From an uncultured Dehalococcoidia bacterium (GTDB lineage: Bacteria; Chloroflexota; Dehalococcoidia; Lucifugimonadales; UBA1123): 64,000 nucleotides of DNA. Position numbers and translations under genes: made by a program. The DNA lies in assembly GCA_964640295.1 (NCBI GenBank), contig CAZXFX010000008.1:3153-67152 (forward strand), given 5' to 3'. The first letter of the stretch is position 1. The number at the start of each line of letters is the position of its first letter. Below the pieces are notes generated by a model. It ran no database searches. It saw only the letters and a list, made by a program, of their open reading frames with translations, and had not been told where the DNA came from. Of the stretch, positions 14,877-59,903 are shown piece after piece.

Positions 14877-14932
14877 AGTTCACCTCCGTGCGCCATACTC
14901 GGCTGTTCCCAAATCTACCGCAGACCATTTCA

Positions 14933-15229
14933 CTAAGTAAAAGCTTCAACGTCTGAGGCTAACTCCGTCCGCGCGAGTCCGCTTCTGCGTCTCATTTCGC
15001 CACGCTTGCATTCGCAGTGGCATATCCTTGCCCACGCCAAAGGATTGCTCAATGCGCGCGCCATCTCTGGCGATAGCTCGGCGCCGTCGTTTAGCAGGTC
15101 TGAAAGCGGCTGTTCTGGAACGCCCAAAATATGAGCCGCATCTTTCAGGCTCAGCCCCTGTTCCTCGATGATCTCCACGCGGATGAAGTCCCCCGGATGG
15201 GGAGGCGTCATGTTCACTTCAATAGCCAT
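14933..15229 (-). CDS. higA: HigA-family HTH (XRE) antitoxin-like protein; possibly frameshifted in its C-terminal third
   Basis: PPHPGDFIRVEIIEEQGLSLKDAAHILGV...LSPEMA matches the HigA/VapI N-terminus and HTH. After ...ARALS the frame no longer resembles the family, whereas another frame reads QSFGVGKDMPLRMQAW, which fits the family pattern FG......L.MQ.aW. Confidence 0.6.
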   Translation of the reverse strand: MAIEVNMTPPHPGDFIRVEIIEEQGLSLKDAAHILGVPEQPLSDLLNDGAELSPEMARALSNPLAWARICHCECKRGEMRRRSGLARTELASDVEAFT

Positions 15230-15430
15230 CAGTGATAATTCTCCAAATTCAAGCGGTCAATTCGCATGGTATATAGGATACAAGGGTTCTTGGCGCAATT
15301 TTACATAGACATCAGGGCAGACCGCTTCATTCAAAAAAACCCCGCCGACTCCGGCGTTGGCCGGAACCGGCGGGGTCTCGCGCGTCGCCGCGCAAAGAGC
15401 CGCCCGGCGAATTGCCAGGTTGCCCTTATC

Positions 15431-16867
15431 TTACCATCGCATCTTGGTTCGCGCAGGTCCATTGACTACCGTGTAGTCGGCGCCGGGGGCGATAGTCGCT
15501 ACGACAGTTCCCCGTTGCGCTCGATTGTCGCTGTCACTGCCGGCGGGAGCGCCCTCTACAGCCACCGAGAAGCGCGCGGCAATGTGCATCGCAAGCAACG
15601 TAATATCGCGCGAGGATTCCGTGACGCAATTGGGGCTCGAAGTCCCGCACTCTCCCTCATTGACGAAATTCACGGTGAAGGTTCGATCTACTGGCGACGG
15701 ACTATTGACAAAGATGACGTATCTAATCCATTTCTTGCACCAGTCCCCAGAACATGATGAACTCCGCGTTACCACCGACGGCAGGCCCTCGATACGCGCT
15801 TCCTTCGCCGGAGCTTTGGCAGTGTCATTGTCGCTGGCCACCAGCGTGGCTGACGCGGAGGCGCCCACTTCATACCCTCGACCCTTGTTTACCGTGGCCT
15901 TGACGTCGTAGCTACCGCGCCACGTGTAGGCGTCGTTGTCCGTAGTCCTATGGGTGTAAGTGACCGACCGCGCGCCGGCCGGTATCCTGACGCTGTCCCG
16001 TTTCATAGCCGGGATGCGGTCAAGGCCCCGATGGTTGGTGCCATCGGAGATGGTAAGCTGAACGTTGAGGCCGCCCGCCGGAGCGTCCACGGAGGACTCC
16101 ACCCTGAACGTGGCGGTCTCGCCTTCCACAATGTCAGGCCCGGCGGTCACCCCAACGACCGGAACCGCTGGCGGCGCGGGGGTGGGCGTGAGTGTCGGCA
16201 GCGGCGTCGGCGTCGCCTCCGGATCAGGCGTCGGCTCCGGTATGGGCGTGAGCGTTGGCGTCGGAGTGGGAGTAGGCGGCTCGTTGCCCGGCACGTTGCG
16301 AACGATGACGGCCGCGCGGTCGTCGTCGCCAACCCGGTAGCTCACGCCATGGCCCACCCTGGCTTCGATTCGCCCATTGGGGGTCCTGGCGCTGGCGACA
16401 ATTTGCGTGGGCGCGCTGAAAGTGACGGAGCTCTGCCCCTCAGGAATGGTTACGTATCGGTTAGCGCGATCGGCGTCGGACAGATAACCCCGCCCGCCCA
16501 AATCCGTGAGAATGCCAGTTTTGGTGTCGAACGAAGTGGCGTAGTCAATGCTGACCGTTACCATCAGGTCCGACTCGACCGCCCGGTCGGATGTCAACTG
16601 GAACTCGATATCTTCCCCCTCGTTGTAAGCGGGATTGACCAGCCGCATCCCAATCACAGGCAAAGTCTCAGGATCCGGAGCGGGCGTGGGAGTCGGGTCG
16701 AGCTCGCCGTCATTGTCCTCTACCCAGACGCTGCTGTAATAGCCGTCGCCGCCATAGCCGTTTCCAGGCCGTATCAGCGCGATGACGCGTCCCTTGGGTT
16801 CGTCAACGGAGTCGTCAACCGTGTCAATCGAGAAGGTCGCCTCGGTCGTGCCCGCGCTGGAGATCAT
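15431..16867 (-). pseudogene. 5-prime-truncated fragment of a Calx-beta-like repeat surface protein
   Basis: Repeated modules end in patterns such as ATFSIDTVDDSVDEPKG, RAAVIVRNV and ATLVASDND, separated by PTPTPTP linkers. Plausible coding begins mid-domain at MISSAGTTEATFSID with no signal peptide. The first roughly 100 codons of the 15431..17167 ORF are antisense to the neighbouring plus-strand gene. Confidence 0.55.
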
Positions 16868-16883
16868 CCGGCATTCCAGCGCG

Positions 16884-18725
16884 ATGGTCGCGGCGGATCT
16901 GCCCAACTCGGCAACTGAGATCAGGCAGTACGCGGCAATGGTGAACCGGCGGGAAGCCGCGCTGAACGCGCAGCTAGCCATCCTGGACAGAAGCGGCCAC
17001 GACGACAGGGCCGCCCAGATCCGGTTTCTGGTCAAGGCTCTGACGCTCAACGCGAATGCCATCCACCTGGGAAGGCCTGCCTTGCTCCAGGCGGAGGCGG
17101 CGGAGCGCGCTACCATTGCGGCGCTGTCGCAAGCTAACCGCGGCCATTTATTCCCCAACGCCGACACCGACGCGGACGAACAGTTTTACAGCCTGGTATC
17201 CAGCGTTGGGGGCGCGTCCACAGTCTCCCGCGCGGACGTATTGCGCTACTCACACTTGACCAGCCTGGCGTCGAGCGTGAAGTTGGCGCACGCTCTGCTG
17301 GAGCTCGCCGGCTTCACGCAGCAGCCGTCTTTCGTCGCGCGCATCAGGGAGCCCTACGACTCGGCTGCCAACACGCTGGACCGGGACATCGAGTATCTTG
17401 AGACTCTCGGCAACCCCGAATTGCAGCGCGATGTGCTGGGTTACGCCAAGGCGGCGCGCGCCGCCGGAACCGGCAATAATAACTACTTCGACCACCTGAA
17501 CCTCCGGCTGCAACTGGTTGAAACCGAAAACGCGCAGGTGGCGGAGAACAAGGAGAACCTGGCCCGACTGCGTGATGAAGTCGGCAGTCTCGCCGCCGAA
17601 GCGATGGGAAGGGAACCCCCAATTCCCGAAACCGCGCCCTGGACGTTTGTAGCCAACCCCGGCGTCACCGCGGACGCCATCCTGTTCGGTCAATCCGCCG
17701 ATTTCTCCGGCAGTTCCCGGGAACTGGGCGAAGGAATGCGCCTGGGCATCCTGACCGCGTTCCACGAGGTCGGCAGAGTTCACGGCCGCGAGCTGCAGCT
17801 AACTCACTACGACGATGGCTATGAGCCGGACCGCGCCTTTGTCAACACCCGCCAGCTAATTGACCAGGACCAGGTATTTGCCCTGATCGGCCCCGTGGGA
17901 ACGCCCACATCCCGGGCCGCGGCGCCCTTGGCCCACGCGGCGGGAGTTCCCTTCATCGCTCCTTTCACCGGCGCCGCGCTGCTGCGGGATCCCGAGCTGA
18001 CCAACATCCTCAACCTGCGCGCCTCATACCACCAGGAAACCGAGCTCATGGTAGACTATCTTGAAGGCCGGGGCATCTCCCGCGTGGCCGTCCTCTACCA
18101 GAACGATTCCTATGGCGTAGATGGACTGGAAGGCGTAAAGCGAGCGTTGACCGACCAGAACATGGAGTTGACCGCTTCCTGGTACTATCGCAGGAACACG
18201 ACGGCGGTTCGCTCGGCGGCGTTCCGCATCGCCGCCGCCGAGCCGCAGGCAGTGATCATCATCGGCGCCGCGGAACCGGCGGCCCGGGCCATTGAATTGC
18301 TGCGCGAGAAACTGGGCTCAGACACCATCTTCATGAACGTATCCTTCGTGGGCAGCGGCGCGCTGGCGGACGAGCTCGGCGCGGCGGGGCAAGGCGTATT
18401 CATGACGCAGGTAGTTCCATTGCCATCCGACAACGACAACTTCCTCGTTGGACAGTACCGCGCCGCGCTGCGCGCTTACGATCCAGAGGCTCAGCCCGGG
18501 TTCATTTCGCTGGAGGGCTACCTCGCGGGACGCCTGGCCATCGCGGGTCTCGACGATTGCGGCGCGGATGTCAGCAGGGAGTGCTTCCTGAACGCCATTC
18601 GCAACGCCGGAACCATCGACTGGAATGGCTTTGAGATGACCTTCGGCGCCGGCGACAACCAGGGATCCGACGCCGTGTTCCTGACCCAACTCGACGCGGA
18701 TGGACAGTACCAACCGGTTCCATAG
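16884..18725 (+). CDS. Type-1 periplasmic binding protein (LivK/branched-chain amino-acid-binding-like) with a roughly 270-aa N-terminal helical extension; orphan
   Basis: The C-terminal 350 aa reads LFGQSADFSGSSRELGEGMRLGILTAFHEVG...VFALIGPVGTPTSRAAAPLAHAAGVPFIAPFTGA, which is a PBP1 fold pattern. No signal peptide is evident, and no permease or ATPase genes are adjacent. The start is uncertain (ATG at 16884 or 16938). Confidence 0.65.
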   Translation: MVAADLPNSATEIRQYAAMVNRREAALNAQLAILDRSGHDDRAAQIRFLVKALTLNANAIHLGRPALLQAEAAERATIAALSQANRGHLFPNADTDADEQFYSLVSSVGGASTVSRADVLRYSHLTSLASSVKLAHALLELAGFTQQPSFVARIREPYDSAANTLDRDIEYLETLGNPELQRDVLGYAKAARAAGTGNNNYFDHLNLRLQLVETENAQVAENKENLARLRDEVGSLAAEAMGREPPIPETAPWTFVANPGVTADAILFGQSADFSGSSRELGEGMRLGILTAFHEVGRVHGRELQLTHYDDGYEPDRAFVNTRQLIDQDQVFALIGPVGTPTSRAAAPLAHAAGVPFIAPFTGAALLRDPELTNILNLRASYHQETELMVDYLEGRGISRVAVLYQNDSYGVDGLEGVKRALTDQNMELTASWYYRRNTTAVRSAAFRIAAAEPQAVIIIGAAEPAARAIELLREKLGSDTIFMNVSFVGSGALADELGAAGQGVFMTQVVPLPSDNDNFLVGQYRAALRAYDPEAQPGFISLEGYLAGRLAIAGLDDCGADVSRECFLNAIRNAGTIDWNGFEMTFGAGDNQGSDAVFLTQLDADGQYQPVP

Positions 18726-18761
18726 TAGCGCCGATTGGCATGACCGCGGGCTCGGCTCGCG

Positions 18762-19640
18762 CTATCGGCAATCGGGAGGGAAGTGACGTTGTGACACATC
18801 GTTCTTGACGTGCGTGTTGTATGTGGCGATATCGGCTGAAGTAGCCGTCGTGGTCGAGGTCACGAACGCCAGGCGGAACTTTTTGCCGGCCGTCAGCCCG
18901 GGGTCGGTAGGCTTCAGATCCCAGTTGGCGGGGACGACGCGAACGTCGATGATGCGGACCGTCGCCGTGCAGACTTGCGGTGGCGATTCTGACGGTGAAC
19001 GTTTCCAACCCTTCGGAAACGGAGGCCCCCACAAACGCGTCGTAGCCATCTGTTCCGATGTATATGTGCTGTGTCACCGATGTCGCGCCGGCGGGGATGG
19101 TCAGATTCCACGGCCCTTGGACATAGTCGGCGCCAAGCGTATCTGTGCCTTCGGCGATGCCGCGCCGGTTCCGGTTTCGGCCGTCTCGAGCGTGAAGGTT
19201 CGATCTATGCTGGCGGCCGGGTCGACCGTAATCGTCACCGGCATCGCCGTCCCTTCTTCGGCCTGGTAGTTGGCCGCGTCCAGGGTGATGCTCTGCGAGT
19301 CGTAGATGGTGACGGTCATCGCGCAAGAGCTGGTCGAGTCACAGTGCGACTGGCTAGAATCAAAGGGAGTCCCCGATACAGAAGACCAGACCAAGGTGAT
19401 AGTCTCGGCGGATTTAGCTGTGTTGTCCTTGCAGATCTGGATGTCAGTCCACGAATACACGGGGTCAGAGTCTCCCGCGGACGGGTTGATAGCGTCATTC
19501 TCAGCCGCCAGGAAAACGAAGTCTTCGCCCAAAGAACAGGTAGAGTCGGCCGATCGCGTGGCTGTTCCGCCGACATCGCTGTTTCCGTGCCGAATGAGAA
19601 TGTCGCCGTCTCTACCGCTGGGGATCGTTCCGGTGAGCTG
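18762..19640 (-). pseudogene. Frameshifted remnant of a Calx-beta-like surface protein
   Basis: The coding sense passes through three minus frames. The pieces are ...TFTLETAETGTG / IAEGTDTLGADYVQGPWNLTIPAGATSVTQHIYIGTDGYDAFVGASVSEGLETFTVRIATAS / PQVCTATVRIIDVRVVPANWDLKPTDPGLTAGKKFRLAFVTSTTTATSADIATYNTHV. There is no N-terminus. Confidence 0.55.
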
Positions 19641-20611
19641 AATGGCGACGCTTTCGTCGCCACCACCGGCGACAGCGTGGACGAGGCCGACGGGTCGGTG
19701 ACGGCGACACTGGCCACCGGAACGGGCTACACCGTGTCCACGTCCAGCAATGCCGCAACAGTTACAGTGGCGGACGATGACGACCCGCCCGGCCTTTGTT
19801 GCCGACGCGACCATCGTGACCAACGTCCGCAGCTACGTCGCCGAAACCCAGCACGGCGCGGTGCACGTCAATCGTTGGAAGAAGGTACTAGTCGGGCTGG
19901 GCGTCGAGAGCTACGCCGGCGTCACCGCGATGACATCGACCGAAGCGCAGACGTACGCCGACTTTTGGGCTGGACGCGTTGGGGCCCCGTTGTCGATGAA
20001 CTCAAGAGGGCGGAGGTAGCGGCCGCGGGGCAGGGGCAGCAACCTACGCCCACGCCGACGCCTGCACCGCCGCCAACGCCTGAGATCAGCATCGGGGCCG
20101 GAAGGGCGGCGCCGCGACGTTCACGCTGACTGCCAACCCTGCCCCGGCAGCGGACCTCCCCGTGACGGTGACGGTGTCCGCAACCGGCGACTATGGCGTC
20201 ACCACGGGCGCGAAGACGGTCACGATTGGCACGGGCGGCACGGCGACGCTGATCGTCCCGACAACGGGCGGCAGCGTGGACGAGGCCGACGGCTCCGTAA
20301 CGGCGACAGTGTCGACGGGCAGCAACTATACGGTGTCAACGAGTACGGGTGCGGCGGCGGTAACCGTCTCCGACGACGACCCGCCGGCGAGCGATCTGCT
20401 CGCAGCCCTCGAAGCGGCGCTGGCGGAACAGCCGCAGCCGTTCATCGAGGCCATCCTGCGCCACGCCGTCGCGACCGTGAAGGGCAACTCGACCTGGTTC
20501 GAGCAGCGCAACCCGTCGCTGATCCTGGTGGACGTGTCCATCCGTTTCGCCCAGAGCGGCACCGTCAAGGACGCCCTGGCCCAGTTCAAGACCTGGTACA
20601 ACAACCGCTAG
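19640..20611 (+). pseudogene. Frameshifted remnant of a Calx-beta-like surface protein (C-terminal end)
   Basis: At least three frame changes, near 19790, 19968 and 20100. The pieces are ...SVDEADGSVTATLATGTGYTVSTSSNAATVTVADDDDPP / AFVADATIVTNVRSYVAETQHGAVHVNRWKKVL...EAQTYADF / LGWTRWGPVVDELKRAE...PTPTPTP / ATFTLTANPAPAADLPVTVTVSATGDYG...SVDEADGSVTATVSTGSNYTVSTSTGAAAVTVSDDD. Confidence 0.55.
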
Positions 20612-20739
20612 CAGCAATACCCACAGCGGTATCCCTGGATGCGTTGCGGGAACAGCCTCCAGCACGAGTGGGGCAGGGAGACCGCTAGGCAGGGAGAGAC
20701 CGCAAGGCGCGGAAGCCAAAACTCAGGGCCGCCAGTACT

Positions 20740-21342
20740 CTTGCCACCAACCCCGCCACGTCGGTCCAGAGACCCAAACACGTCGTCAGGGTGGGCAAGA
20801 CACCTACTCGAATCTATAAATGTTAAGAGGGTCTCAGGGACAGGGCGCTAATCGGCGCGATGCTCTACACCTTCGGCAGGGTCGGCGCGGTCATCGCCAT
20901 GGACGTCGAGGTCTACAGGCTGAGCAATCACCAGCGCATGTTCCTGCTGCGCGAGAAGGGAGGCAAGGAGCGCCAGGCGCCCGCTCACCACAGGCTTGTC
21001 GAGTATCTGGGGGAGTACATGGACACCACCAACCTCCGGGATTCACCGAAGGCGCCGTTGTTCCAGTCGCTGGACCTCACCAGGTCCCGTCTGAAGGGGA
21101 CGCGCATGAACAGGCAGATAGCGCTCCAGAGGGTAAGGGGCCGCGCAAGGGCCGCGGGTCTGCCGCCCGCGGTGAACTGCCACAGATTCCGGGCCGCCGG
21201 CATCACCAACTACCCGTCCAACGCTGGGTCATTGGAGGACGCGCGCGCCATGGCAGCGCATGAGTACTCTCAAACGACAAGGCTGTACGACCGCACAGGG
21301 GACAAGATCACCCTGGACGAGATTGAACGCATCAGATTTTGA
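20740..21342 (+). pseudogene. Tyrosine recombinase/integrase pseudogene (N-terminal domain missing, in-frame TAA at 20824)
   Basis: One frame reads LATNPATSVQRPKHVVRVGKTPTRIYKC-stop-EGLRDRALIGAMLYTFGRVGAVIAMDVEVY...HRFRAAGITNY...AAHEYSQTTRLYDR. The catalytic-domain motifs R, HxxR, H and Y are present, but the upstream core-binding domain is absent and the linker is shortened. Confidence 0.75.
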
Positions 21343-21600
21343 GTGCCGCTGCTTTCACTTCGCACGCTCCGGACGGGTGGAGCTCTTTCCCCGCGTCTAA
21401 TGTCACTGCAATCCACCGTCCATCGTCATTTGACTGTCGAATGGCGTCAATAAGCCGATACGGTCCCACGGCATCGATTCTTGCCTGCCCACCACCGCTT
21501 ACGTCGTGACGTTTACAGCCCCCAAGGAAGTTGTTACTATCCCATGTGTGAATATAGTTGATACTAGGTATCGTGAACAACGAGACCATCGAACACAGAC

Positions 21601-21798
21601 TTATTGGCGGCAGTTGAAAACCTGGGGCGCCGTCTGGAGATCGTCAAGTTGCTTGCCTCGAAGCAGAAAGGGTTCACCACGTAGCAGGTCCTCAAGCAGT
21701 CTCCTGGCGGTCGCTTTGCCAATGCTGGACGAAGCGCCGGTGACCAATATGGTCTTCCCCGCCCCACCCTTTATCCTGTGTTCATTTGAAGTGGTCAT
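21601..21798 (-). pseudogene. N-terminal fragment of a short-chain dehydrogenase/reductase (SDR)
   Basis: KTILVTGASSSIGKATARRLLED is the TGxxxGIG Rossmann motif. The ORF stops after 65 aa, and the catalytic YxxxK region was not found downstream. Confidence 0.5.
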
Positions 21799-21978
21799 CG
21801 TTGACTCCCCCAGTTTGTCTCACTCCACCATAGAACACATAATGCGTCAGGACGCTATCAAATCACGCCATCTTAGCGCAATATGCGCCAATCCGGATGC
21901 TGCGCCAGACTCACAGCGCAAAGGTTCTCAGGGGGGGGGGCGACTTGGCGCACCTGAGTTACGACCCAATTCGCAGGG

Positions 21979-22006
21979 TTGACGCGCAGTGGGATTCTGC
22001 TATAAT
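21979..22006 (+). promoter_or_regulatory. Sigma70-like promoter upstream of the ABC exporter
   Basis: TTGACG (21979-21984), a 16-nt spacer, then TATAAT (22001-22006), in an AT-rich intergenic patch about 80 nt upstream of the ATG at 22087. Confidence 0.5.
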
Positions 22007-22014
22007 TCGCAATC

Positions 22015-22026
22015 GCAATTAATTGC
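22015..22026. promoter_or_regulatory. Perfect 12-bp palindrome GCAATTAATTGC just downstream of the -10 (candidate operator)
   Basis: GCAATTAATTGC is its own reverse complement. Related half-sites (TTCGCAAT, ATGCAATAG, TTCGCAGG twice) are scattered across 21965-22080. Confidence 0.4.
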
Positions 22027-22086
22027 AATAGCTTGTAGTATTATATGCTTATAAATGAATATGCAATAGTTCGCAGGAGCTGAGCG

Positions 22087-25000
22087 ATGTATTTTGACTT
22101 ACGACTCTTCGAGTTGACCCGAGGCGTGAGGCTTCGAATCCTGTTTGCTGCTGCCCTGGGCCTGATCGCAGTGGGCGCCGGCGTTGCTAGGCTGGCCGTA
22201 TCCGGCGTCGTTATCTACCGGGTCATCACCGGGCAGGCGGACTTCTCCACGCTCACGCTACCCTTGCTGGTCATCGCAGCGCTGATCGTCGCTCGCAGTG
22301 TCTTCCAGTACTGGCAGAACGCGGTGAGCCATCACACCGCCAACCTCGTCAAGATCAGGCTGCGCGAGGAGGTCTATCAGCACGCGCTGCTACTCGGCCC
22401 GGGGTACGCCGACCGGAACCGGACCGGTGACGTCGTCCTCACGATAGTGGAAGGCATAGAGCGGCTGGAGACCTTCTTCGGGCAGTACCTGTCCCAGATC
22501 ATCGTCTCCGCCATCGCCCCCGTAGCCATCTTCGCCTTCATGGTAACGCTGGACCTGTACATCGCGCTCATCTTCCTGCTGTTCGCCCTCCTTGCGCTGG
22601 TCGTTCCGGCCGCGTTCTATCGATGGAACAGGAACAGCAGCTACAGACGCCGCCAGTCCTACGGCGATCTGGGTTCGGATTTTCTGGACAGCGTCCAGGG
22701 ACTAGCGACGCTCAAGGCGTTTGGACAGAGCAAGGGCCGCGGCAGTATTCTGGCGCAGCGCGCTCACCACCTCTACAAGAGCACCATGGGAGTGGTCGCC
22801 GCCAACGGGGCCACGAGCGGCGCGTCGATATTCTTCATGGCCACCGGGGCCGCAGTAGCCCTGGCCGTGGGCGCGGTTCGCGTCAGCGGCGGCGACATGG
22901 AGCTGCGGCCCCTGCTCATCGTGCTGATGCTCGGGGTCGAAGTGTTCCGGCCCATGCGTGAATTGACTAACCTTTATCACCAGGGCATGACCGTGGTCTC
23001 ATCGGCGCACAGCGTCTTTGACATTATGGACGAGCCGGTTACGATCCTCGAATCCGAAGCTGCCGCCAATGGACCGGCGCCTGAAATCACGCCAGAGGTC
23101 TTCTTTGAGGGCGTTACCTTTGGGTACGACAGCGGCCACCGGCCCGCGCTCCATGACGTATCGTTCGACCTGCGCAAGGGCGAGACCCTTGGCGTCGTGG
23201 GCGCCAGCGGCGCAGGGAAGTCAACGCTGGTCTGGCTGATGTACAGGTTCTACGACCCTCAGGCCGGCTCAATCAAGCTCGGCGGCCACGACCTCCGAGA
23301 GCTCCCGCTGAATGCGCTCAGGGACAACATATCGGTCGTCACCCAGGATACGTACCTGTTCCACGGCACCGTCGCCGACAACTTGCGTTTCGGAAAACCC
23401 GACGCAACGCAGCAGGAACTGGAGGAGGCCGCCCGCGCCGCGAATGCACACGAGTTCATTACGCAACTGCCCCAGGGCTACGATACCGTTGTGGGCGAAC
23501 GGGCGGTCCGGCTGTCGGGCGGACAGCGTCAGCGGCTGGCGATTGCGCGGGCGTTGCTGAAAGATGCGCCGATTCTGCTGCTGGACGAGGCTCTCTCCAG
23601 TGTCGACGCCGAGAATGAGTCCGTCATCCAGGAGGCGCTTGACCGACTGATGGAGGACAGGACGGCGCTCATCATCGCTCACCGTCTTTCCAGCGTCATC
23701 AAGGCAGACCGCATCCTGGTTCTCGACGAAGGTCGGACTGTAGAGATCGGGGCGCATGCCGAGCTCATGGCCGCCGACGGCGTCTATGCCAGTCTCATGC
23801 GCCAGCAGGCTCAGACGGGCCTGATAGACCTCGCGGCGTTTTCCGCTCCCGAGCGGGCGCGCTCTAGCGCCTCCGTCGACCACGTCGCTGATCTCCAACT
23901 GTCCGGCGGACACGCTCATCGCGCGCCGTCCCGCTCCCATCACAGTGACGAAGCGGTCAACATTCGCTCCTTGAATGTCTGGGTCAGGCTCTTCGGTTTG
24001 GTCGGGCCGGTCAAGTTCCAGTTCCTAGGAACTCTAGCCCTGGGGCTGCTCCATCACGGCTCCGTTATTCTCCTGGGGGCGTTCAGCGCGCTTCTGGTGG
24101 GGGCGGTGTTCCGCGACGAACCTCTGACGACCTACCTCGTTCTCGTGTGCATCTTCGCCCCGCTTTCGGCGTTGTTGTTCTACCTGGAATCGTGGCAGGC
24201 GCACGACATGGCATTCAGGCTGCTGGCGAAGATGCGAGTCGACCTCTACGAGAAGCTGGAGCCTCTGGCACCGGCCTACATGGTCCGGCGTCGCTCCGGC
24301 GACTTCGTCAGCGTTGTGGGCGGCGACGTGGAGACGGTCGAGTACTTCTTCGCTCACGCCGTGTCGCCAATGATCGTCGCGGTCCTGATACCGGGCGCGC
24401 TGCTGACTGCGCTGGCCGTCATATCCTGGCCCATCGCCGTGGTTCTGGCTCCGTTCCTCGTGGCAGTGGCCGTCAGCCCCTTCTTCGCCAACACACGCAT
24501 CGAGCGGCTCGGTACAGAGATCCGCGACCGCATCGGCGAGATCCACGCATACATGGTTGACAGCATCCAGGGCATGCGGGAAATCGTCGCATTCGGACTC
24601 GGGCCCAACCGGAAGCGGGAGCTGACCGAGAAAAGCTGGGACTATGCAAGCCACCTTGTCCGGTTCCAGAAGTCACAGGCATTCCAGATAGGCTTCATGG
24701 AGGCCATGATGGGACTCGGCGGGCTGGCGGTGCTGGCCATGGGCGTGTGGCTGGTGCTCAATGGACAGATCGCACGGGCCGAGTTGCCCCTCGTCAGCGT
24801 ACTGGCCCTGGCCTCATTTAGCCCCGTAACCGAGCTGGCCCGCACCATGAAACAGATGATGGAGACGCTGGCAGCGTCCCGCCGCATTCTCGCCGTCCAC
24901 GACGAGGCGGTCCCGGTGCAGGATGGGCCCGGCGTGGCGCACCTCACTGACGAGGTACCCTCGGGCGCGCCGTCCATCGACTTCGAGGATGTAGCCTTCG

Positions 25001-25716
25001 CCTACTCGGAAGGCGACCCGCAGGCGCTGGTCGACGTTTCCTTCGGCATAGGCTCAGGACAGACCGTGGCTGTCGTGGGCCGTTCAGGGGCAGGCAAGAC
25101 CACGGTCGCCTATCTGATGATGCGCTTCTGGGACCCGGACCAAGGCGATATTGCCCTGCAGGGTCACAGACTGGAAGATCTCCTGCTCGATGATTTGCGC
25201 GGCCGCATGGCGCTCGTCGCACAGGACACCTACCTGTTCAACGACACCATTCGCGAGAACATCCGGCTCGGACGGTACGGCGCCACAGATTCGGAGGTAG
25301 AGGAGGCTGCGAAGCAGGCTAATGCCCTAGAGTTCATCGAGTCCTTCCCGGACGGTTACGACACCCGCGTCGGTGAGAGAGGAATGCAGCTATCCGGTGG
25401 GCAGCGGCAGCGGGTCGCTATCGCCCGCGCTATTCTCAAGAACGCTCCGGTACTGATCCTGGACGAGGCCACGTCGCATCTGGACGCCATCAGCGAGGCG
25501 ACGGTCCGGGAGGCGCTCAGCCGGCTCATGTCGGGCAGGACCACGATAATCATGGCCCACAGGCTGTCCACCATTCGCGACGCCGACAACATCCTGGTGC
25601 TCGACGAGGGAGTGGTCGTGGAGCAGGGAAAGCACGAGGACCTTCTCGCACGTAGCGGGCTGTATGCTCAGCTCGTGGCAACGCAGATGCAGGGACAAAG
25701 GTCAGCCCCGGGCTAG
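22087..25716 (+). CDS. Fused full-length ABC exporter (TMD-NBD-TMD-NBD in one 1209-aa polypeptide)
   Basis: Two Walker A motifs (GASGAGKST, GRSGAGKTT), two signature motifs (LSGGQRQRLAIARA, LSGGQRQRVAIARA) and two Walker B motifs (LLLDEALS, LILDEATS). Each NBD is preceded by a six-helix hydrophobic domain. Confidence 0.9.
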   Translation: MYFDLRLFELTRGVRLRILFAAALGLIAVGAGVARLAVSGVVIYRVITGQADFSTLTLPLLVIAALIVARSVFQYWQNAVSHHTANLVKIRLREEVYQHALLLGPGYADRNRTGDVVLTIVEGIERLETFFGQYLSQIIVSAIAPVAIFAFMVTLDLYIALIFLLFALLALVVPAAFYRWNRNSSYRRRQSYGDLGSDFLDSVQGLATLKAFGQSKGRGSILAQRAHHLYKSTMGVVAANGATSGASIFFMATGAAVALAVGAVRVSGGDMELRPLLIVLMLGVEVFRPMRELTNLYHQGMTVVSSAHSVFDIMDEPVTILESEAAANGPAPEITPEVFFEGVTFGYDSGHRPALHDVSFDLRKGETLGVVGASGAGKSTLVWLMYRFYDPQAGSIKLGGHDLRELPLNALRDNISVVTQDTYLFHGTVADNLRFGKPDATQQELEEAARAANAHEFITQLPQGYDTVVGERAVRLSGGQRQRLAIARALLKDAPILLLDEALSSVDAENESVIQEALDRLMEDRTALIIAHRLSSVIKADRILVLDEGRTVEIGAHAELMAADGVYASLMRQQAQTGLIDLAAFSAPERARSSASVDHVADLQLSGGHAHRAPSRSHHSDEAVNIRSLNVWVRLFGLVGPVKFQFLGTLALGLLHHGSVILLGAFSALLVGAVFRDEPLTTYLVLVCIFAPLSALLFYLESWQAHDMAFRLLAKMRVDLYEKLEPLAPAYMVRRRSGDFVSVVGGDVETVEYFFAHAVSPMIVAVLIPGALLTALAVISWPIAVVLAPFLVAVAVSPFFANTRIERLGTEIRDRIGEIHAYMVDSIQGMREIVAFGLGPNRKRELTEKSWDYASHLVRFQKSQAFQIGFMEAMMGLGGLAVLAMGVWLVLNGQIARAELPLVSVLALASFSPVTELARTMKQMMETLAASRRILAVHDEAVPVQDGPGVAHLTDEVPSGAPSIDFEDVAFAYSEGDPQALVDVSFGIGSGQTVAVVGRSGAGKTTVAYLMMRFWDPDQGDIALQGHRLEDLLLDDLRGRMALVAQDTYLFNDTIRENIRLGRYGATDSEVEEAAKQANALEFIESFPDGYDTRVGERGMQLSGGQRQRVAIARAILKNAPVLILDEATSHLDAISEATVREALSRLMSGRTTIIMAHRLSTIRDADNILVLDEGVVVEQGKHEDLLARSGLYAQLVATQMQGQRSAPG

Positions 25717-25831
25717 CCTGGCTTTCCTCGACTGGGCGACTGTGTGAACTGCCATCTCTCGAATGAGTAGTGTCCCGTAAGTATCCGTGTTGGATGTCAA
25801 GCCCTGTGAGAGGCTTTGGGGGAAGGAAGGC

Positions 25832-26787
25832 CTAGCCAGCCTGTGGTACCCAGGGCGTCCCTCTGCGAGCAACCGCGTTCAGATGAACAAGTAGCTTGCG
25901 CATGACCGCTACCACGGATACGTTGCCTGGCTTACCGCGTTCACGCAGACGACGGTAGAAGCTGCGCATCTCCGCGTCGTGCTGGATGGCCGATCAGGCA
26001 CACAGGTACAGCGCGGATCGAACTGTGCTCCGACCGCCACGGATCGCACGTTTGCCCCTTTTGCTCCCACTGTCTCGGGACCAAGGCGCCAACCCGACAA
26101 GAGAGCTGAGAACCTTACTGTCCCAGTGTCCAGTTCGGGCAGAAAGGCTACCATAGTGGCCGAAGTCAGAGAGCCGATACCCCGCACACTGCGGTACAGA
26201 GCAGCCCGTTCGGCCAAGGGTGAGATCTTCTCCAGCGCCGTCCGGCACTCGGCATCCAGTCGGGCGATCTCCCTCTCCATCCAGGCGATATGGCGTCTTG
26301 TGGACTTGATGGTGACCGAGCTGGCGCCCTTGTCCAGACGTCCCAGCTCCTGAACGCGCTGAACCACTAGGTGTCTTCGTCGATTCAGCAGATATCTCGT
26401 AGCTGTTGGCGTTCGGGGGCGAACTCATCATCAGGCACCTTAACGGCGTGGAAGACCTGTCCGTAGCGGGACAAGACTTGTGCGTCCCTGGGATCGGTCT
26501 TAGCTTCGTAGCCGCATGCATTCGCGAAGGCGCGCACCCGTGTAGGATGGGCCACATGTATCGCTACCCCTTCCTCCCCCAACCGATTCACCAACACTCG
26601 CTCGTACCCGCCCATGGCTTCGCACACGACCAAGGGTGTCGTCACTCTTCCCCAGGTACTTCAGCAGCCTCGTAATACCAACCTTCGTATTATCGAACCG
26701 CACCACCGGTTCCTCAGACACCGATACGTCGAGGTTCGTCTTCCCCACGTCAACGCCGACTCCCAGTAACTCGACTCCATTATCCAT
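25832..26787 (-). mobile_element. IS110-family transposase pseudogene (multiple frameshifts plus an in-frame TGA)
   Basis: The pieces lie in four minus frames: MDNGVELLGVGVDVGKTNLDV..., LVVCEAMGGYERVLVNRL...KTDPRDAQVL, ...LYRSVRGIGSLTSATMVAFLPEL, ...LVGLAPWSRDSGSKRGKRAIRGGRSTVRSALYLCA-TGA-SAIQHDAEMRSFYRRLRERGKPGNVSVVAVMRKLLVHLNAV. Confidence 0.8.
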
Positions 26788-28531: not shown

Positions 28532-28999
28532 ATGCAGGCTATGACAATCACGTCTGCTTTGACAAGATTAATCCGCGTTCGGGAAGCCCGCGCGCACTGC
28601 GACATTCCGTGCGGAATCTACGACCCGATCTCGGCCAAGATAGCGGCGCAGACCGTCCAGAAGATGGTGCTTCGGATAGAGTCGCTGGACGACGCCGGCG
28701 ACGCCGCTTCCGCGAACACGCTTGGTCGCTATATCACCGTGAAGGAAGAGCACGCCGAACTGTGCAAGCACGAACTTCGCGTGCTGTGGGCCGACTACAC
28801 ATGGCCCGGTACAGACGCCAACGAAATCGCCTCCAAGTTCAACGCTGCGCTCAAGCTGGCCAGCCAGTGCAAGCAGACCGTCAGCATGGACAACGCCGAG
28901 GCGCTGGTTGCCGCCGTGGACGACATCGCCACTGTATTCTGGTCCACAAAGGGAGTTGAGTACAGCGACCCCAACGCCGCTGTTCGCTATGGTTCCTAA
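28532..28999 (+). CDS. sodN: Nickel superoxide dismutase precursor
   Basis: The Ni-hook HCDIPCGIYDP follows a roughly 21-aa leader. The overall size (155 aa) is typical. Confidence 0.9.
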   Translation: MQAMTITSALTRLIRVREARAHCDIPCGIYDPISAKIAAQTVQKMVLRIESLDDAGDAASANTLGRYITVKEEHAELCKHELRVLWADYTWPGTDANEIASKFNAALKLASQCKQTVSMDNAEALVAAVDDIATVFWSTKGVEYSDPNAAVRYGS

Positions 29000-29432: not shown

Positions 29433-29762
29433 TCAATGCTTGTAGTCCTCGCGGGGTGGACTGAATATGTCCAGCGCCACTGCCGGTTGGTCGGTAGCTT
29501 TTACGTAGTGTTCCACCCCGCCCGGAATCACGTATGTGTCGCCCTTTTTCACTCTGGAAGTTATTCCGCCTATCGTGAAATCGAACTCGCCCTCCAGGAC
29601 CATTCCCGCCTGCTCATGCGGGTGCTGGTGCATCGGCACTTCAGAGTTGGGAGCTATCTCCACGATGCTCATCATGATATTTTCGCCCCATATCGTTCTG
29701 AGGAAGACCCCCGGCGCGAGTTCTCTGCGATTGATCTCGTCGGGATTGTAGGTGTATGTCAA
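29433..29762 (-). CDS. Cupin domain protein
   Basis: 109 aa. Cupin motifs PMHQHPHEQAGMVLEG and GDTYVIPGGVEH. Confidence 0.75.
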   Translation of the reverse strand: MTYTYNPDEINRRELAPGVFLRTIWGENIMMSIVEIAPNSEVPMHQHPHEQAGMVLEGEFDFTIGGITSRVKKGDTYVIPGGVEHYVKATDQPAVALDIFSPPREDYKH

Positions 29763-29789
29763 AGCGCGCTCCTCCGATTTCTGAGTAGG

Positions 29790-44454: not shown

Positions 44455-45303
44455 ATGCAATTTTGCATTCGACTGATGACTATTGCGTTTCTGTCCTCGG
44501 CGATCATATTCGTGGTTGCCTGCTCGTCGGGACTGACCGAATCTCAGGTCATCGAACTCATACAAACGCATTCCACCCCTGGTCCCGCAGGCGAGCAGGG
44601 CCCTCCGGGTCCGCAGGGGCCGCAAGGTGATGTTGGAGATACAGGTATGCAAGGTCCACAGGGTGAGGTTGGTCCGAAAGGCGCCAAGGGCGATCCGGGT
44701 CCGCAGGGAGCCAGAGGTGGCGCGGGGCCGCAAGGCGATACTGGCCCACAAGGTAAGACTGGTCCGAAAGGCGCCAAAGGAGATACGGGACCGCAGGGGC
44801 CCAGAGGCGACGCAGGGCCGCCGGGCGACACTGGCCCACAAGGTGAGCCTGGTCCGAAAGGCGCCAAAGGAGACAGGGGACCGCAGGGGCCACAGGGCGA
44901 TATCGGACCCCGAGGCGAAGAAGGTCCCGCGGCTAAAGTCATAACAGTTCCCAGTTTCTGGTTCATCCAGTCCTTTGACGACGGCGACACATATGCGGAA
45001 CTCTGGTCTCCGAAGAACACCTATAACGAGGCCATCGTCAAATTGTGTAGGTCAGATAGTATCTGGGTAAACGGTGACTTCTCAGATATTGGAGGAGAGA
45101 GAGTCGAGGTCGCCTACACAGGCGAAGACGGTCGAATTACAGACAGGTGGTATGTGTCAGAAAGTGGGGACGCCATATTCGGCGATAACAGATTCACTCT
45201 CACACTCGCCACCTCTGACGAAGTACTCCTGGAAGTTCCCGCGGCGGACTTTTCAACGATGTTTCAGACGTCGGGATACCCAATTGATAGGTGTGGACTC
45301 TAG
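44455..45303 (+). CDS. Collagen-like (Gly-X-Y) repeat lipoprotein with a globular C-terminal domain
   Basis: Lipobox VVACSSG, then 39 uninterrupted G-X-Y triplets, then a roughly 120-aa non-repetitive domain. Confidence 0.8.
44581..44931 (+). repeat. Gly-X-Y coding repeat with an underlying 90-bp tandem periodicity
   Basis: GGTCCGAAAGGCGCCAA[AG]GG recurs at about 44671, 44761 and 44851, giving the 30-aa unit [30 protein letters not shown]. Confidence 0.8.
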
Positions 45304-50665: not shown

Positions 50666-51133
50666 ATGCTAAAGATAGGCAGTCCGGCGCCGGACTTCCA
50701 GATCACTCTCGGTTCAGGGGAAACGTTTACGCTCTCAGACCACAGGGGGCAGAACGTCGTCATATTCTTCTTCATACGGGCTTTCACTTACGGGTGAGAA
50801 AACCAGGTAAGGGGTTTCGGTGAAATCCATGACAAACTGTCTGCGATGAACGCTGAGGTCATCGGAATAAGCGGCGACGGCGCGGACAGGATGAAGCGAT
50901 TCGGCGACTCTATTGGCATCCCGTTCGAGTTGGGGAGTGACTCATCCGGGGATGTTCGACGCCTTTATGAAGTACAGCGACGGTTTCGTCTGGGCACATC
51001 CAGGATAACTTACGTGATTGACGCCGAGGGAGTGGTTCGAGGCGCCTTCCACAATGAGCTGTCCATGAGCAGTCACAGCAAGAACGCGCTCAAAACGCTT
51101 GAGAGCGTCGTAGCCGACAGTCAGATCGGCTGA
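50666..51133 (+). CDS. bcp: BCP-type peroxiredoxin with an in-frame TGA at the peroxidatic Cys position (candidate selenoprotein, otherwise a nonsense pseudogene)
   Basis: A single frame reads MLKIGSPAPDFQITLGSGETFTLSDHRGQNVVIFFFIRAFTYG-TGA(50795-50797)-ENQVRGFGEIHDKLSAMNAEVIGISGDG...SRITYVIDAEG. The motif TxxC is replaced by T-Y-G-TGA. Confidence 0.6.
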
Positions 51134-54088: not shown

Positions 54089-57000
54089 ATGAATCCGTAT
54101 GGAATTCATGGAGGTCAACCGCTTATGCTGAGTATTCGCTTTGCGTCTGTTGCGTCAATGATCGTCCTTGCTGGCTTGGCGCTGTCCCTTTTGCTCTTCG
54201 CTTCTGGACTTTTCGGCGACAGCGGCGGCGATCAGGCAGCGGATATTCCCGAACCGCAAGAGCGGGAGTATCCCAACCTGGGTTCGCAACTGAACAGGAT
54301 GGTGGAGGAGTATGAAAGCGGGGTCAGCGCTCTGCCCGCCGGGGACAATAGCGCGGCGCAGGCGATGGGCCGCGATTTGGCGCAACAGGCGCCTTTGCAA
54401 CTGGACGGAGCGGTGGCGATTACCGTTTACGTGTCCGGAAACGTGGCGACGGTGGTGGGGTTCATGGAGTCTGTCGGAGGCGACCCGCGCAACGTGGGTG
54501 ACGACTATATCGAGGCATACGCGCCGGTTTCGATTCTGGGCGCGCTGTCGCAGCGTCCCGGCGTGGATCGGGTGGAGGCAATCATACCGCCAGAGCCGGA
54601 TTACGGCAGCGTTCTGAGCCAAGGGGTGGCGGCTCACCTGGTCAACGCCTGGCACGCGCGGGGCGTCACGGGCCAGGGCGTCAAGATAGGAATCATAGAC
54701 TCGGGATTCCGCGACATACGCAGTATCCAGGGCACAGAGTTGCCGACGATTATTCACGCCCGGTGTTTCTCCTCGCTGGGGAGATATTCCACCAATCTGG
54801 CGGATTGTGAGTCGGTGCCTGAAGTTACCTGGGAAGCTGACCCATCATGCCTTCCTTACAGGCGGGGACTGGCGAGTCGGCCTGGTCATGGGACAATAGT
54901 GGCCGAGACGGTCCTCGACATGGCTCCGGGGGCTACCCTGTATATTGCGGATCCGTCGTCTTCTGGAGATTTGGCCAGCATCGTCAACTGGATGACATCG
55001 CAGGGGGTGACAGTCATCAATATGTCGCTGTCGTGGGTTTATGACGGTCCTGGGGACGGCACGTCCAAATACAGTAGCAGCGCTCTGAGAGCGGTTGACC
55101 GCGCGGTAAGCCGGGGCGCTCTCTGGGTGAACTCAGCAGGGAACTCGGGCCAGGAAAGTTGGCTGAGCGCATGGTCCGACCCCGATAGCGATGGCAAGAT
55201 GTCCTTCAGCCGCACTGTCAACGACGAAGTCATGGATATTCCGCTGCGGCCCTGCACACGGTACTTGATCCAGTTGCGGTGGAAAGACGACTGGTTCGGA
55301 CCGGACACGGATCTGGATCTGCACTGGTACAAAGAAAAACGAAGGGGTGATATATTCCAGCGCCGCGGCGCAAACTGGGCAAAGCAACCAGATACCGCGC
55401 GAGGGGATCGTAATCAGGACACCCAACTTTTCAGGTATAGATAACACTAAGGGTATCGTTGTAACCCGCGCGAGCGGTCCGATTCCGGACTGGGTTCAGA
55501 TATTGGTCTGGGGCATTGATCCCATCCAGCATTACAACACCAGGGGAGGCATCAGCAACCCCGGTGAAAGCGCGAACCCGGGGATGCTGACCGTTGGGGC
55601 GTCGCATTACAGCCGACCCCTGTCCATCGAGCCTTACAGCAGCCGGGGCCCGACGCCGGACGGTCGGGTCAAGCCGGATATAGTTGGGGTGGACTGCGCC
55701 CAGACGTCGCTGGTGTCCAGTTTCTGCGGAACCAGCCAGGCGTCGCCGCACCTGGCGGGTATGGCGGCTTTGGTCAAGCAGAGGAACCCGACGTTCAGTC
55801 CTCAGCAGATAGCGAACTACCTGAAGAGCAACGCACAGGACTGGGGCGTATTGGGCGTGGACAACACATGGGGACATGGGCTGGCGCGATTGCCGGCGCC
55901 TAATCCGGCGCCTACACCGACCTATACCCCTACGCCGACCTATACTCCTACCCCTACACCCGCATCGCGCCAGGCGAATTGCGTGGCGACAATCACCGCT
56001 GACGGAGCGGTATCCGGAACCTGGGCTGACGATTGCCAGTCTGAAGAATCGGCGCGGGGCTACGCTCGCTACTACACCTTCACGCTGACTCAGAGGAGCG
56101 AGGTCACGATTGACTTGGAATCCAGGGTTGATACTTACCTGTATTTGCGTAGGGGCAACAACGCTCGCTCCGGCAGTTTAGTGGCGGAGGACGACGATGG
56201 AGGCGGCAACCAAAACTCGCGGATTAGGAGGACCCTGGCGGCTGGCGATTACACCATTGAGGCTACGACGTATAGAGTCCACCAGACGGGCGACTTTATC
56301 CTGAAGGTTGCGGGACTGGGCAATAACGTTCAGCCGACGCCCACGTACACGCAGACGCCCACACGGGCGGTTATCCTGACGCCGACATACACACCCACGC
56401 CTATCGTTGTGGCTGGGAATTGCGCGCAGACGATCAGCGCAGACGGGTCAATCACCGGAACCTGGCGATCTGGCTGCCAATCCCAAGAGTCGGGACGCGG
56501 CTACGCTCGCTATTACATTTTCTCGCTGGGGCGGGATAGCGATGTCACTATCCAGCTGGAATCCGCTACGGACCCGTACCTGTATTTGCGTAGGGGCAAC
56601 GACAGGCGCTCCAGCAATATAGTCGAATACGATGACGATGACGGCGGCAACAGAAACTCCCGAATTAGCCGAAGTCTGTCGGCTGGGATTTACACCATCG
56701 AGGCGACTACTTACGCTGCTGGGCAGACGGGCGACTTTACCCTGACGATTACTGGTCTGGTCGGAGGCGTAGCGCCGCCCCCGCCGCCGAATACTTTCGT
56801 GCCGGACGCCAACCTGGTGGCCAACATCCAGCGGTGGCGAGGTGAAACTCATCACGGGCAAGCGCACATTGATCGCTGGACCAGGGCGCTGATTGCGTTG
56901 GGCGTAGAGACGGGCAGCCTGAGTCCGATGACATCCAGCGAGGCGCAAACATACGTGGACAGAGGATGGGGGAGCCGTTGGCGCCCGGTGGTGGCGGAAT

Positions 57001-57500
57001 TGCGGCGCAAGGAGAATCACGACGCAGGCAGGTCTCAGGGTCGGGCTTCGCCGACGCCGGCCGCGACGCATACACCAACGCCGACGCCAGGTCCCACGAC
57101 GCCGACTCACACACCAACATCGACACCCGCGCCTCAAGTCGGGGCGAACGGCTGCGTGGAGACAATAGTGGCCAGAAGGCCGGTATCAGGGTCGTGGACG
57201 TCAGAGTGCCAGTCTCAGGCCACGTTCCGCGGTTACGCGCGGTATTACACCTTCACGCTAGATCAGTTGAGCATCGTCAACATTAACCTGGAGTCTGGAA
57301 TTGACAACTACCTGTACTTGCGTCAGGGTCATAATGTGCGGTCCGGCTCGGTTCTGGAAGAAGATGATGATGGCGGCGGAGATGGGGATGCGTTCATCAG
57401 CAAGCAATTGCCGGCCGGGGATTACACTATCGAGGCTACTACTTACGATGAGAATCGTTCGGGTAGATTCAGGCTGGAGTTCTCTTTGCTGGGGCGGTGA
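54089..57500 (+). pseudogene. S8 subtilisin-family peptidase with three PPC-type C-terminal domains, interrupted by a frameshift at an A-run (about 55334-55340)
   Basis: Asp (GIIDSGF), His (HGTIVAE) and Asn (NSAGNSG) lie in ORF 54089..55444. Ser (GTSQASPHLAG) lies in ORF 55347..57500. The two ORFs overlap in different frames around AAAGAAAAAC. Confidence 0.8.
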
Positions 57501-59084: not shown

Positions 59085-59903
59085 TTGGACTTCAGATCTC
59101 CGTACACACGTCAGCAACAAGAATTTCGCGCGGTCGCGCGCGCCTGGTTGATGGAGAATTTCCCCAGAGACTTGAAGATACCTCCCGACGGCAGTCCGCT
59201 TGACGCCGAAAACCAGGCGAGAGTGAAGGAGTTCAGGCGTATGCTGGGCGAAAAGGGGTGGCTGGCGCCGTCCTGGCCGAGAGAACTGGGCGGCGGCGGA
59301 CTCACGTCGGGCCTGGACGTCATTTTGATGGAGGAGATGCGGCGAATGCCGCTGCCCAGCATGGGGGACAACAATCGCTGGGTGCCGGCGATGATGGTCT
59401 GGGGAACTGAAGAGCAGAAAGAGCGTTTCATTCCGCCGTGTCTCAAAGGGGAGTCGATTACCTGGCAGTGCTTCAACGAGCCGGGTTCAGGCTCGGACTT
59501 CGCGGCGGTCAATACATACGCCGTTCCGGAAGAGGGCGGCTGGGTGATCAACGGCGAGAAAGCGTTCATTACCGGACGATTCGATCCCGACTACCTGATT
59601 ACGCTCGCCAATACGGGAAAAGACAGGCCGCGGCGAATGAATCTGGGCGTGTTCATGGTGGACGCGAATAGCCCGGGCATAGAGATACGCAATATGAGGC
59701 TGCTCATGGGAAGCGAGCGAAGAGTCAAGTTCGACAACGTGTTCGTGCCAGACGACTGTCGCATCGGGCCGCCATATCAGGGCTGGGAGATAGCGATGAC
59801 GGTCATAGAGGCGGAGCGCGGCGGCGTAGCATTCCGCATTAGCGAAGACGGCACCATAGAGAGCATCTATCAATATCTGCGCGACCAGCGCAACGATCAG
59901 TGA
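59085..59903 (+). pseudogene. Acyl-CoA dehydrogenase paralog lacking the C-terminal domain (3-prime truncated)
   Basis: It aligns with the upstream paralog from MDFRSPYTRQQQEFR through FNEPGSGSDFAAV to ...IEAERGG, then stops at 272 aa. Only about 100 bp remain before moeA. It has a TTG start after AAGGGGGA. Confidence 0.6.

Follow-up and report, generated by a model that had tools for sequence, protein, structure and literature searches.

Does the TGA triplet that interrupts a peroxiredoxin gene of an uncultured Dehalococcoidia bacterium mark a broken gene, or does it encode selenocysteine (Sec)? The gene occupies positions 50666-51133 on the plus strand of a 64,000-nt stretch of contig CAZXFX010000008.1 (GenBank assembly GCA_964640295.1), referred to below as the window. 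A preliminary description, made from the letters of the window, had proposed the TGA at 50795-50797 as a candidate Sec codon. We followed up this proposal by comparison with about 96 homologues, fetched from Dehalococcoidia/SAR202 genomes and from metagenomes. The candidate is supported by the sharing of one alignment column between TGA and Cys codons, by an open and conserved reading frame, by selection on this frame, and by a hairpin tied to the UGA. We consider it very probable that UGA44 is decoded as Sec via SelB and Sec-tRNA(Sec) at the hairpin 50812-50828, and that this BCP-type peroxiredoxin uses Sec44 as its peroxidatic residue.

Reading frame, active site and conservation of the TGA codon

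The gene is intact, apart from codon 44, when read directly from the DNA. As had been described, one reading frame, with 155 codons before its stop, extends from the ATG at 50666 to the TGA ending at 51133, and its sole interruption in both sequence and translation is the TGA at 50795-50797, within the peptide context VVIFFFIRAFTYG[TGA]ENQVRGFGEIHD. The predicted complete coding sequence (50666-51133, plus strand) thus comprises 154 sense codons and Sec44, and specifies a 155-residue BCP/PrxQ-type peroxiredoxin, as judged from the translation, the Pfam and 3DRN matches and the ratio of nonsynonymous to synonymous changes (dN/dS, omega) given below. The true terminator, at 51131-51133 of the same strand, is also TGA in sequence and translation. 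In the mechanical list of open reading frames (ORFs), the gene appears as two pieces, one of 43 aa at 50666-50797 and one of 95 aa at 50846-51133. The earlier remark that only the 95-aa C-terminal piece is annotated holds for the public protein collection as well, since the protein held there (P0004; 95 aa) is 100% identical to this piece and is the only piece present. The fragment called by gene finders at 50846-51133 (plus strand) is an artefact of taking UGA44 as a stop, and the proteins of relatives in public sets (P0011-P0014) are cut short in the same way. The corrected reading of 50666-51133 would give back a complete antioxidant enzyme in place of a 95-aa fragment.

The family searches were run with Cys put in place of the in-frame stop. 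The protein matched Pfam AhpC-TSA (PF00578) with 102.8 bits (cut-off 26; E = 1.6e-29) over profile positions 1-122 of 124, and Redoxin with 55.4 bits (8e-15). The closest solved structure by sequence is that of the BCP-type Bcp1 (3DRN), which aligned over residues 1-149 with E = 1.4e-21. Among the NCBIfam models, Bcp (PRK09437) ranked first with 74.6 bits (8.1e-21), below its equivalog cut-off of 140; PrxQ (NF053650) and PrxU (NF040737) gave 50.2 bits (cut-off 260) and 51.4 bits (cut-off 270), respectively. All three scores fall under the equivalog cut-offs, and we therefore classify the protein, by these profiles, as a divergent BCP/PrxQ-like peroxiredoxin that belongs to none of the named equivalogs and is not PrxU.

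The in-frame UGA (codon 44; 50795-50797, plus strand), which we read as Sec at the peroxidatic position, aligns with Cys in full-length homologues and with the Cys of the TPGC motif in the solved BCP structure 5ENU, so that the TGA does stand at the catalytic Cys column of a BCP-type peroxiredoxin, as had been claimed. In 3DRN the equivalent residue is the Ser of TPGS. The predicted active-site motif is T41-Y-G-U44 (TxxU; 50786-50797, plus strand), assigned from alignment A1 and motif counts. Thr41 is conserved in alignments A1 and A2, as is Arg113, which is encoded at 51002-51004 (plus strand) within GTSRITYVID, forms an invariant column in both alignments and corresponds to the conserved catalytic Arg of peroxiredoxins. 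The Pro of the PxxxTxxC/U motif, usually found seven residues upstream of the catalytic residue, is absent from the window protein, which has Ile37 instead. This Pro is present in 11 of 26 Sec-type vs 66 of 70 Cys-type homologues, and where it is lost in the Sec forms (15/26) it is replaced by Ile, Val or Ala. It is not strictly required, given that the other four of the 70 Cys forms also do without it. The window protein contains no cysteine at all, and a Cys at +8 from the catalytic residue, found in 40 of 70 Cys-type homologues, occurs in none of the 26 Sec-type relatives.

The preliminary description had suggested checking whether the TGA column holds Cys or Sec in relatives, and this is what was found. 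Full-length database homologues with 50-65% identity carry Cys in this column (A1). Several further database matches are C-terminal fragments of 93-114 aa; the corresponding DNA (loci L001-L006) carries an in-frame TGA at the identical codon, with the 43 upstream codons intact and conserved and both flanks in frame. A scan of one genome per GTDB species yielded 80 loci, all from metagenome-assembled genomes (MAGs) labeled Dehalococcoidia, Chloroflexota or 'SAR202 cluster', in which the peroxidatic codon is TGA (16), TGC (58) or TGT (6) and nothing else. By our own reading of the isolate names, some of these MAGs seem to be bins from metagenomes of sponges or corals. Six more TGA forms, with only 40-54% identity, came from a scan of metagenomes, bringing the codon to about 26 distinct sequences; elsewhere the column holds TGC or TGT only, and never TAA, TAG or another codon. 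In a neighbour-joining tree the TGA forms fall into at least five clades interleaved with Cys clades, although the number of Sec/Cys switches is merely indicative because the tree has no support values.

An identical TGA gene is present in three independent SRA assemblies (L007-L009), evidently from the window's own species, which excludes an assembly error, and the TGA form is also found in long-read closed chromosomes of relatives (OY764155.1, OY762634.1, OZ241888.1, OZ242284.1, OZ240220.1 and OY760908.2). The window and its relatives share a gene order of peptidase M1, ComF-like gene, the peroxiredoxin gene (prx) and an NHL-repeat gene on the opposite strand. Locus L011 has this same order, with TGC in the column and the helix lost, and this synteny makes it a genuine Sec/Cys orthologue pair with the TGA form. 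Two findings had been named in advance as speaking against a Sec codon, namely close Cys-type relatives of otherwise identical sequence with no hairpin, and additional disabling mutations in orthologues. The Cys-type relatives are not of that kind, and a second disabling mutation was seen in none of the TGA-type orthologues.

Selection was assessed by pairwise Nei-Gojobori estimates within the window's clade, separately for each side of the TGA. Codons 2-43 gave a median dN/dS of about 0.11 (mean proportions of nonsynonymous and synonymous differences, pN 0.11 and pS 0.59), and codons 45-145 a median of about 0.17 (mean pN 0.14, mean pS 0.54), with synonymous sites close to saturation in this comparison. 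These estimates indicate strong purifying selection on both halves of the gene. A pseudogene, or a gene ending at codon 44, would give a different picture, and the low ratios on both sides thus show that both are translated and constrained.

A hairpin in fixed register with the UGA codon

Bacterial Sec insertion sequence (SECIS) elements, as in E. coli fdhF and the bSECISearch model, are stem-loops inside the ORF just 3' of the UGA, with an apical loop about 20 nt downstream that carries G(G)U. The window has a SECIS-like hairpin at 50812-50828 (plus strand), recognized from the sequence and by comparison, which likewise lies inside the coding sequence directly 3' of the UGA and whose loop, about 20 nt on, carries G(G)U as well. 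It consists of GGGUUUC (50812-50818), the loop GGU (50819-50821) and GAAAUCC (50822-50828), forming a continuous helix of 7 bp in which 50814:50826 is the single G.U wobble and no U bulges out. The distance from the UGA to the stem base is 14 nt, and the loop begins 24 nt after the U of the UGA. The hairpin and its loop at +24 had been reported correctly in the preliminary description, whereas the start at 50813 and the bulged U given there need a slight correction.

The criteria for the comparison were modelled on those of bSECISearch. In each TGA form, a perfect helix of 5-10 bp carries a loop that starts 19-24 nt after the U of the UGA and has G at its first or second base; the loop starts at +23 or +24 in 22 of 25 distinct TGA-type sequences. 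The stem takes four forms: GRGUUUC-GGY-GAAAYYC and GGGGUUC-GGC-GAAUCCC together make up the first, followed by GGGAGUU-UGNN-RACUYYC, by GAAGUCGCGG-AGUU-CCGCGAUUUC and by GYRGCUUC-(12 nt)-GAAGCYRU. The helix covaries among relatives. At the sixth pair, the window and L002 differ by a compensatory change (G:C to A:U), and two such changes (G:C to A:U and U:A to C:G) were observed among L099, L101 and L103. In a gap-free alignment of the window clade with L084 and L086, 94.9% of the cells are paired, compared with 10-60% after displacing the partner by 1-3 columns, and two pairs change on both sides. RNAalifold recovered essentially the same helix.

A helix of at least 7 bp meeting the criteria is present in 21 of 26 Sec forms vs 5 of 64 Cys forms (Fisher p = 1.8e-11), and the test of the helix against synonymous recodings of the same peptides gave a combined p of about 1e-5, both values being inflated because the compared sequences are phylogenetically related. 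The evidential weight of the hairpin comes from this comparison with relatives and not from the single sequence.

In the mechanism that we propose, the hairpin would act as a bacterial SECIS element and recruit the SelB.GTP.Sec-tRNA(Sec) complex to the ribosome paused at the UGA at 50795-50797. Sec would then enter as residue 44, and translation would continue to the stop at 51131. Sec44 of the T41-x-x-U44 motif, activated by Arg113, would attack the peroxide and form a selenenic acid, which would be reduced by an external thiol, for example a small thiol or a protein resembling thioredoxin or glutaredoxin. The lack of any Cys in the protein, together with the lack of a +8 Cys in the 26 Sec-type relatives, points to a '1-Sec' peroxidase that is recycled by an external thiol. 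For the organism of the window, we infer the SelB/SECIS insertion, the peroxidase activity and the identity of the reductant from these sequence features.

Selenocysteine machinery and alternative readings

Several observations weigh against Sec insertion at codon 44, and those that concern the hairpin are taken first. Folding of 50795-50860 revealed no unusual stability (z = -0.73 vs shuffles), nor any gain over synonymous recodings of the peptide (mean z -0.3), a measure in which Sec forms do not differ from Cys forms, in agreement with the earlier assessment that the hairpin is unconvincing on its own. Searches of the whole window against Rfam at the gathering threshold, and of 50760-50900 in a permissive scan, gave no SECIS or other meaningful match. 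The window helix differs from known bacterial SECIS elements in being just 7 bp long, in having no obvious bulged U and in fitting no Rfam model. The phylogenetic inflation of the p-values belongs here as well. Moreover, the Cys forms L019, L021, L035 and L042 keep a similar stem with a UGC loop, and the hairpin is thus not exclusive to Sec forms. Thermodynamic stability was dropped as a criterion; it is only the register-specific helix statistic that separates Sec from Cys forms.

The remaining points concern the Sec machinery. The 64-kb window contains no tRNA gene at all, and so no tRNA-Sec, and Pfam scans of about 50 window ORFs detected no selA, selB or selD. A tRNA-Sec scan of about 1.7 Mb (L001-L091 with the window) and of L092-L112 found none. 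The loci of relatives were also searched by tblastn with E. coli SelA, SelB and SelD sequences. The SelD sequence had no match, and SelA and SelB gave three: a 455-aa gene that divergently adjoins prx in L019, another placed in this way in L042, and a 620-aa gene in L023. The L019 and L042 genes are selA (TIGR00474, 538 bits, cut-off 268) and lie on the minus strand, at 8316-9683 in L019 and about 8521-9828 in L042, beside Cys-type prx genes that keep the hairpin stem with the UGC loop. The L023 gene is selB (TIGR00475, 357 bits, cut-off 242); it is located at 15340-17202 on the plus strand, 5 kb from prx. The prx genes of these three loci are of the Cys form, and the machinery could be tied to no TGA-form genome.

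A synteny lead points to the DNA just beyond the window. In three Dehalococcoidia (L109, L110 and L115/L116), selA lies 0.1-1.5 kb upstream of mgsA/rarA. The window begins inside an mgsA/rarA gene (1-666, plus strand), which is 70-71% identical to those of L109, L110 and L115, and it shares the downstream major facilitator superfamily (MFS) and beta-eliminating-lyase genes with L115 and L110. The selA gene of the window genome may therefore lie just upstream of the window start. This lead is imperfect, as selA is not beside mgsA in L113, L019 or L042. The DNA upstream of the window was sought in two ways: the mgsA fragment matched only N-terminally truncated proteins, and an exact look-up via the threonine-aldolase-like gene returned a Logan contig ending inside mgsA.

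A second selenoprotein gene was not found in the window by a codon-usage scan or in the loci by an all-vs-all Sec/Cys scan, both of low sensitivity; the two scans returned the prx site plus off-frame shadows only. A separate observation concerns the minus strand of L041 near 10926, directly downstream of a Cys-type prx, where an in-frame TGA (...PFQG[TGA]GPAGKVNF...) corresponds to Cys in three other loci at 54% identity; it is possibly a further Sec/Cys site or else an off-frame artefact. The literature supports Sec use in the group. The ten bacteria with the most selenoproteins include two Dehalococcoidia MAGs, which have 49 and 46 such genes (PMC13326102). In the sponge Aplysina aerophoba, most symbiont bins contain both the SelA and the SelB clusters of orthologous groups, for which the bins are enriched (PMC5649159). 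If decoded as we propose, the window gene adds evidence for selenium use in SAR202-like and sponge-associated Dehalococcoidia and agrees with the reports of selenoprotein-rich MAGs.

Among the alternatives, the one that survives best, and which we nevertheless consider very unlikely, is decoding of the UGA without selenium, either through near-cognate read-through that inserts Trp, Cys or Arg, or through delivery of Cys-tRNA(Sec) by SelB under selenium scarcity, which would yield a Cys or Trp protein. In other systems, UGA Sec codons are known to be misloaded with Cys, and the Sec machinery was not found in the window sequence of this genome, both of which count in favor of such decoding. Plain read-through, however, needs no hairpin in fixed register with a G-containing loop, and Trp or Arg in place of the peroxidatic residue would abolish activity in a gene that is nevertheless under purifying selection. 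Moreover, the column alternates with Cys codons only, and selA and selB are present in the lineage.

Slightly less probable still is that the gene is a pseudogene, in which a TGC or TGT codon of a Cys-type BCP gene has mutated to the nonsense codon TGA. The Cys-type majority (64 of 80 genomes), the presence in the window of further genes with damage, namely a subtilase gene with a frameshift and an acyl-CoA dehydrogenase gene that is truncated, and the failure to see Sec machinery in the window would all fit such a lesion. It is contradicted by the recurrence of the same TGA in about 26 distinct sequences from at least five clades, down to 40% protein identity and with no second lesion, and by the omega of about 0.1-0.17 on both sides of the stop. 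In addition, the stop in this column is always TGA and never TAA or TAG, and a position-locked hairpin accompanies it. The comparative data thus effectively refute the pseudogene reading.

A split gene, in which a 43-aa N-terminal peptide is followed by a separate 95-aa protein starting at ATG 50846, agrees with the piece annotated by gene callers, but is scarcely credible: the 16 codons between the TGA and this ATG (50798-50845) are conserved at the protein level and belong to the stretch on which purifying selection acts, gene callers place the start of the downstream piece differently among relatives, and the thioredoxin fold of peroxiredoxins needs both parts, with 3DRN aligning across them. 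Equally implausible are a sequencing or assembly error, which conflicts with the identical TGA in three independent SRA assemblies and with the closed long-read chromosomes of relatives, and a global reassignment of TGA, which is at odds with the use of this codon as the terminator of 13 of 36 window genes, prx among them (TAG 17, TAA 6; all but two of these genes Pfam-supported).

Neighbouring features and relation to known selenoproteins

Sec decoding of codon 44 remains our preferred reading. Several other features of the window were also observed. A nickel superoxide dismutase gene (Sod_Ni, 2.4e-38), also encoding an oxidative-stress enzyme, is located at 28532-28999 (plus strand), 22 kb from the putative Sec-peroxiredoxin gene. 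Two overlapping ORFs in different frames, at 54089-55444 and 55347-57500 (plus strand), match Peptidase_S8 profile positions 1-155 and 158-288, respectively, which looks like an apparent frameshift due to a pseudogene, an assembly error or programmed frameshifting. The acyl-CoA dehydrogenase ORF at 59085-59903 (plus strand) has N-terminal and middle domains only and is followed by MoeA from 60007; the gene is probably truncated, with its C-terminal domain missing. The region 11830-26557 looks like mobile or defence DNA, with McrBC (11830-14876), an integrase fragment (20860-21342), an IS110-family transposase fragment (25994-26557) and ORFs without a Pfam match, including 15431-17167 and 19071-20129. 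A cupin-like ORF of about 110 aa with a high coding score (29433-29789, minus strand) shares the frame of the ketopantoate reductase gene (ApbA), whose TGA stop it follows, and had no NCBIfam match; we considered it as an ApbA read-through product and rejected this, as it looks like a separate adjacent gene. Finally, the ORF at 44455-45303 (plus strand) encodes collagen triple-helix repeats (Pfam Collagen, 3.1e-19), which is unusual for a bacterial genome.

The apical loop of the hairpin coincides with the codon at +8 from the catalytic residue. This codon is GGY (Gly) in the hairpin loop and UGC (Cys) in the 40 Cys-type relatives with a second Cys. We therefore note as minor peculiarities of the predicted Sec forms, judged by alignment, the frequent loss of the motif Pro, the lack of Cys, and a SECIS loop placed at the codon of the second Cys of Cys-type relatives. 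A broader proposal, which we regard as unlikely, is that the clade might represent a natural series of repeated Sec-Cys interconversions in aerobic marine and sponge Dehalococcoidia, in which the SECIS hairpin and the second redox residue share the same sequence. If this were true, the switch between a two-Cys and a 1-Sec enzyme would need just two point changes, and the chemistry of the enzyme would be tied to an RNA structure. The clade, with at least five Sec lineages among Cys lineages and four SECIS solutions in one coding region, could serve for studies of how Sec and Cys are exchanged and of how SECIS elements evolve under coding constraint.

A second prx paralogue was observed in L037 at 10001-10450 (genome CBDHEI01). 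Its ORF is otherwise intact and its peroxidatic residue is Cys, and a TGA is present at codon 52 (10154-10156), at the position of the second Cys that is found in 40 of 70 Cys-type homologues; the hairpin downstream is weak. This TGA might be a recent nonsense mutation or might encode Sec at the resolving position.

Our literature search found no paper describing this BCP-like Dehalococcoidia clade. The kind of gene is nonetheless well known, and the window gene leaves the understanding of how selenoproteins work unchanged. Compared with Cys-type BCP/PrxQ proteins, such as Sulfolobus solfataricus Bcp1 (3DRN) and the E. coli Bcp model PRK09437, the window protein is similar in length, in its TxxC-type motif and in the catalytic Arg, but would have Sec in place of Cys and has no resolving Cys. 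PrxU of Eubacterium (Peptoclostridium) acidaminophilum is, as cited in a later review, an experimentally characterized Sec-peroxiredoxin (Sohling et al., 2001, cited in PMC13188914). This AhpC/TSA-fold enzyme likewise has a UGA-encoded Sec as its peroxidatic residue; however, it belongs to another subfamily (NF040737, 51.4 bits vs a cut-off of 270) and comes from a strict anaerobe, whereas the window protein is of the BCP/PrxQ type.

A close parallel is the Sec-Prx family (PF00578, TxxU), which is known from the Sargasso Sea and Global Ocean Sampling (GOS) metagenomes as well as from bacterial genomes, with 253 sequences in GOS (PMC2398784) and members in 78 genome-sequenced organisms (PMC5029168); a review gives its motif as a conserved PxxxTxxU (PMC13188914). 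The window protein shares with this family the Pfam domain, the TxxU motif, the predicted Sec in place of the peroxidatic Cys and the marine habitat, and in both cases Cys homologues far outnumber the Sec forms. It differs in lacking the motif Pro and any Cys, and in its host, a SAR202-like Dehalococcoidia of an often sponge-associated group. On the comparative evidence, the gene at 50666-51133 is best described as a real selenoprotein gene and as an addition to the established Sec-Prx (TxxU) family.

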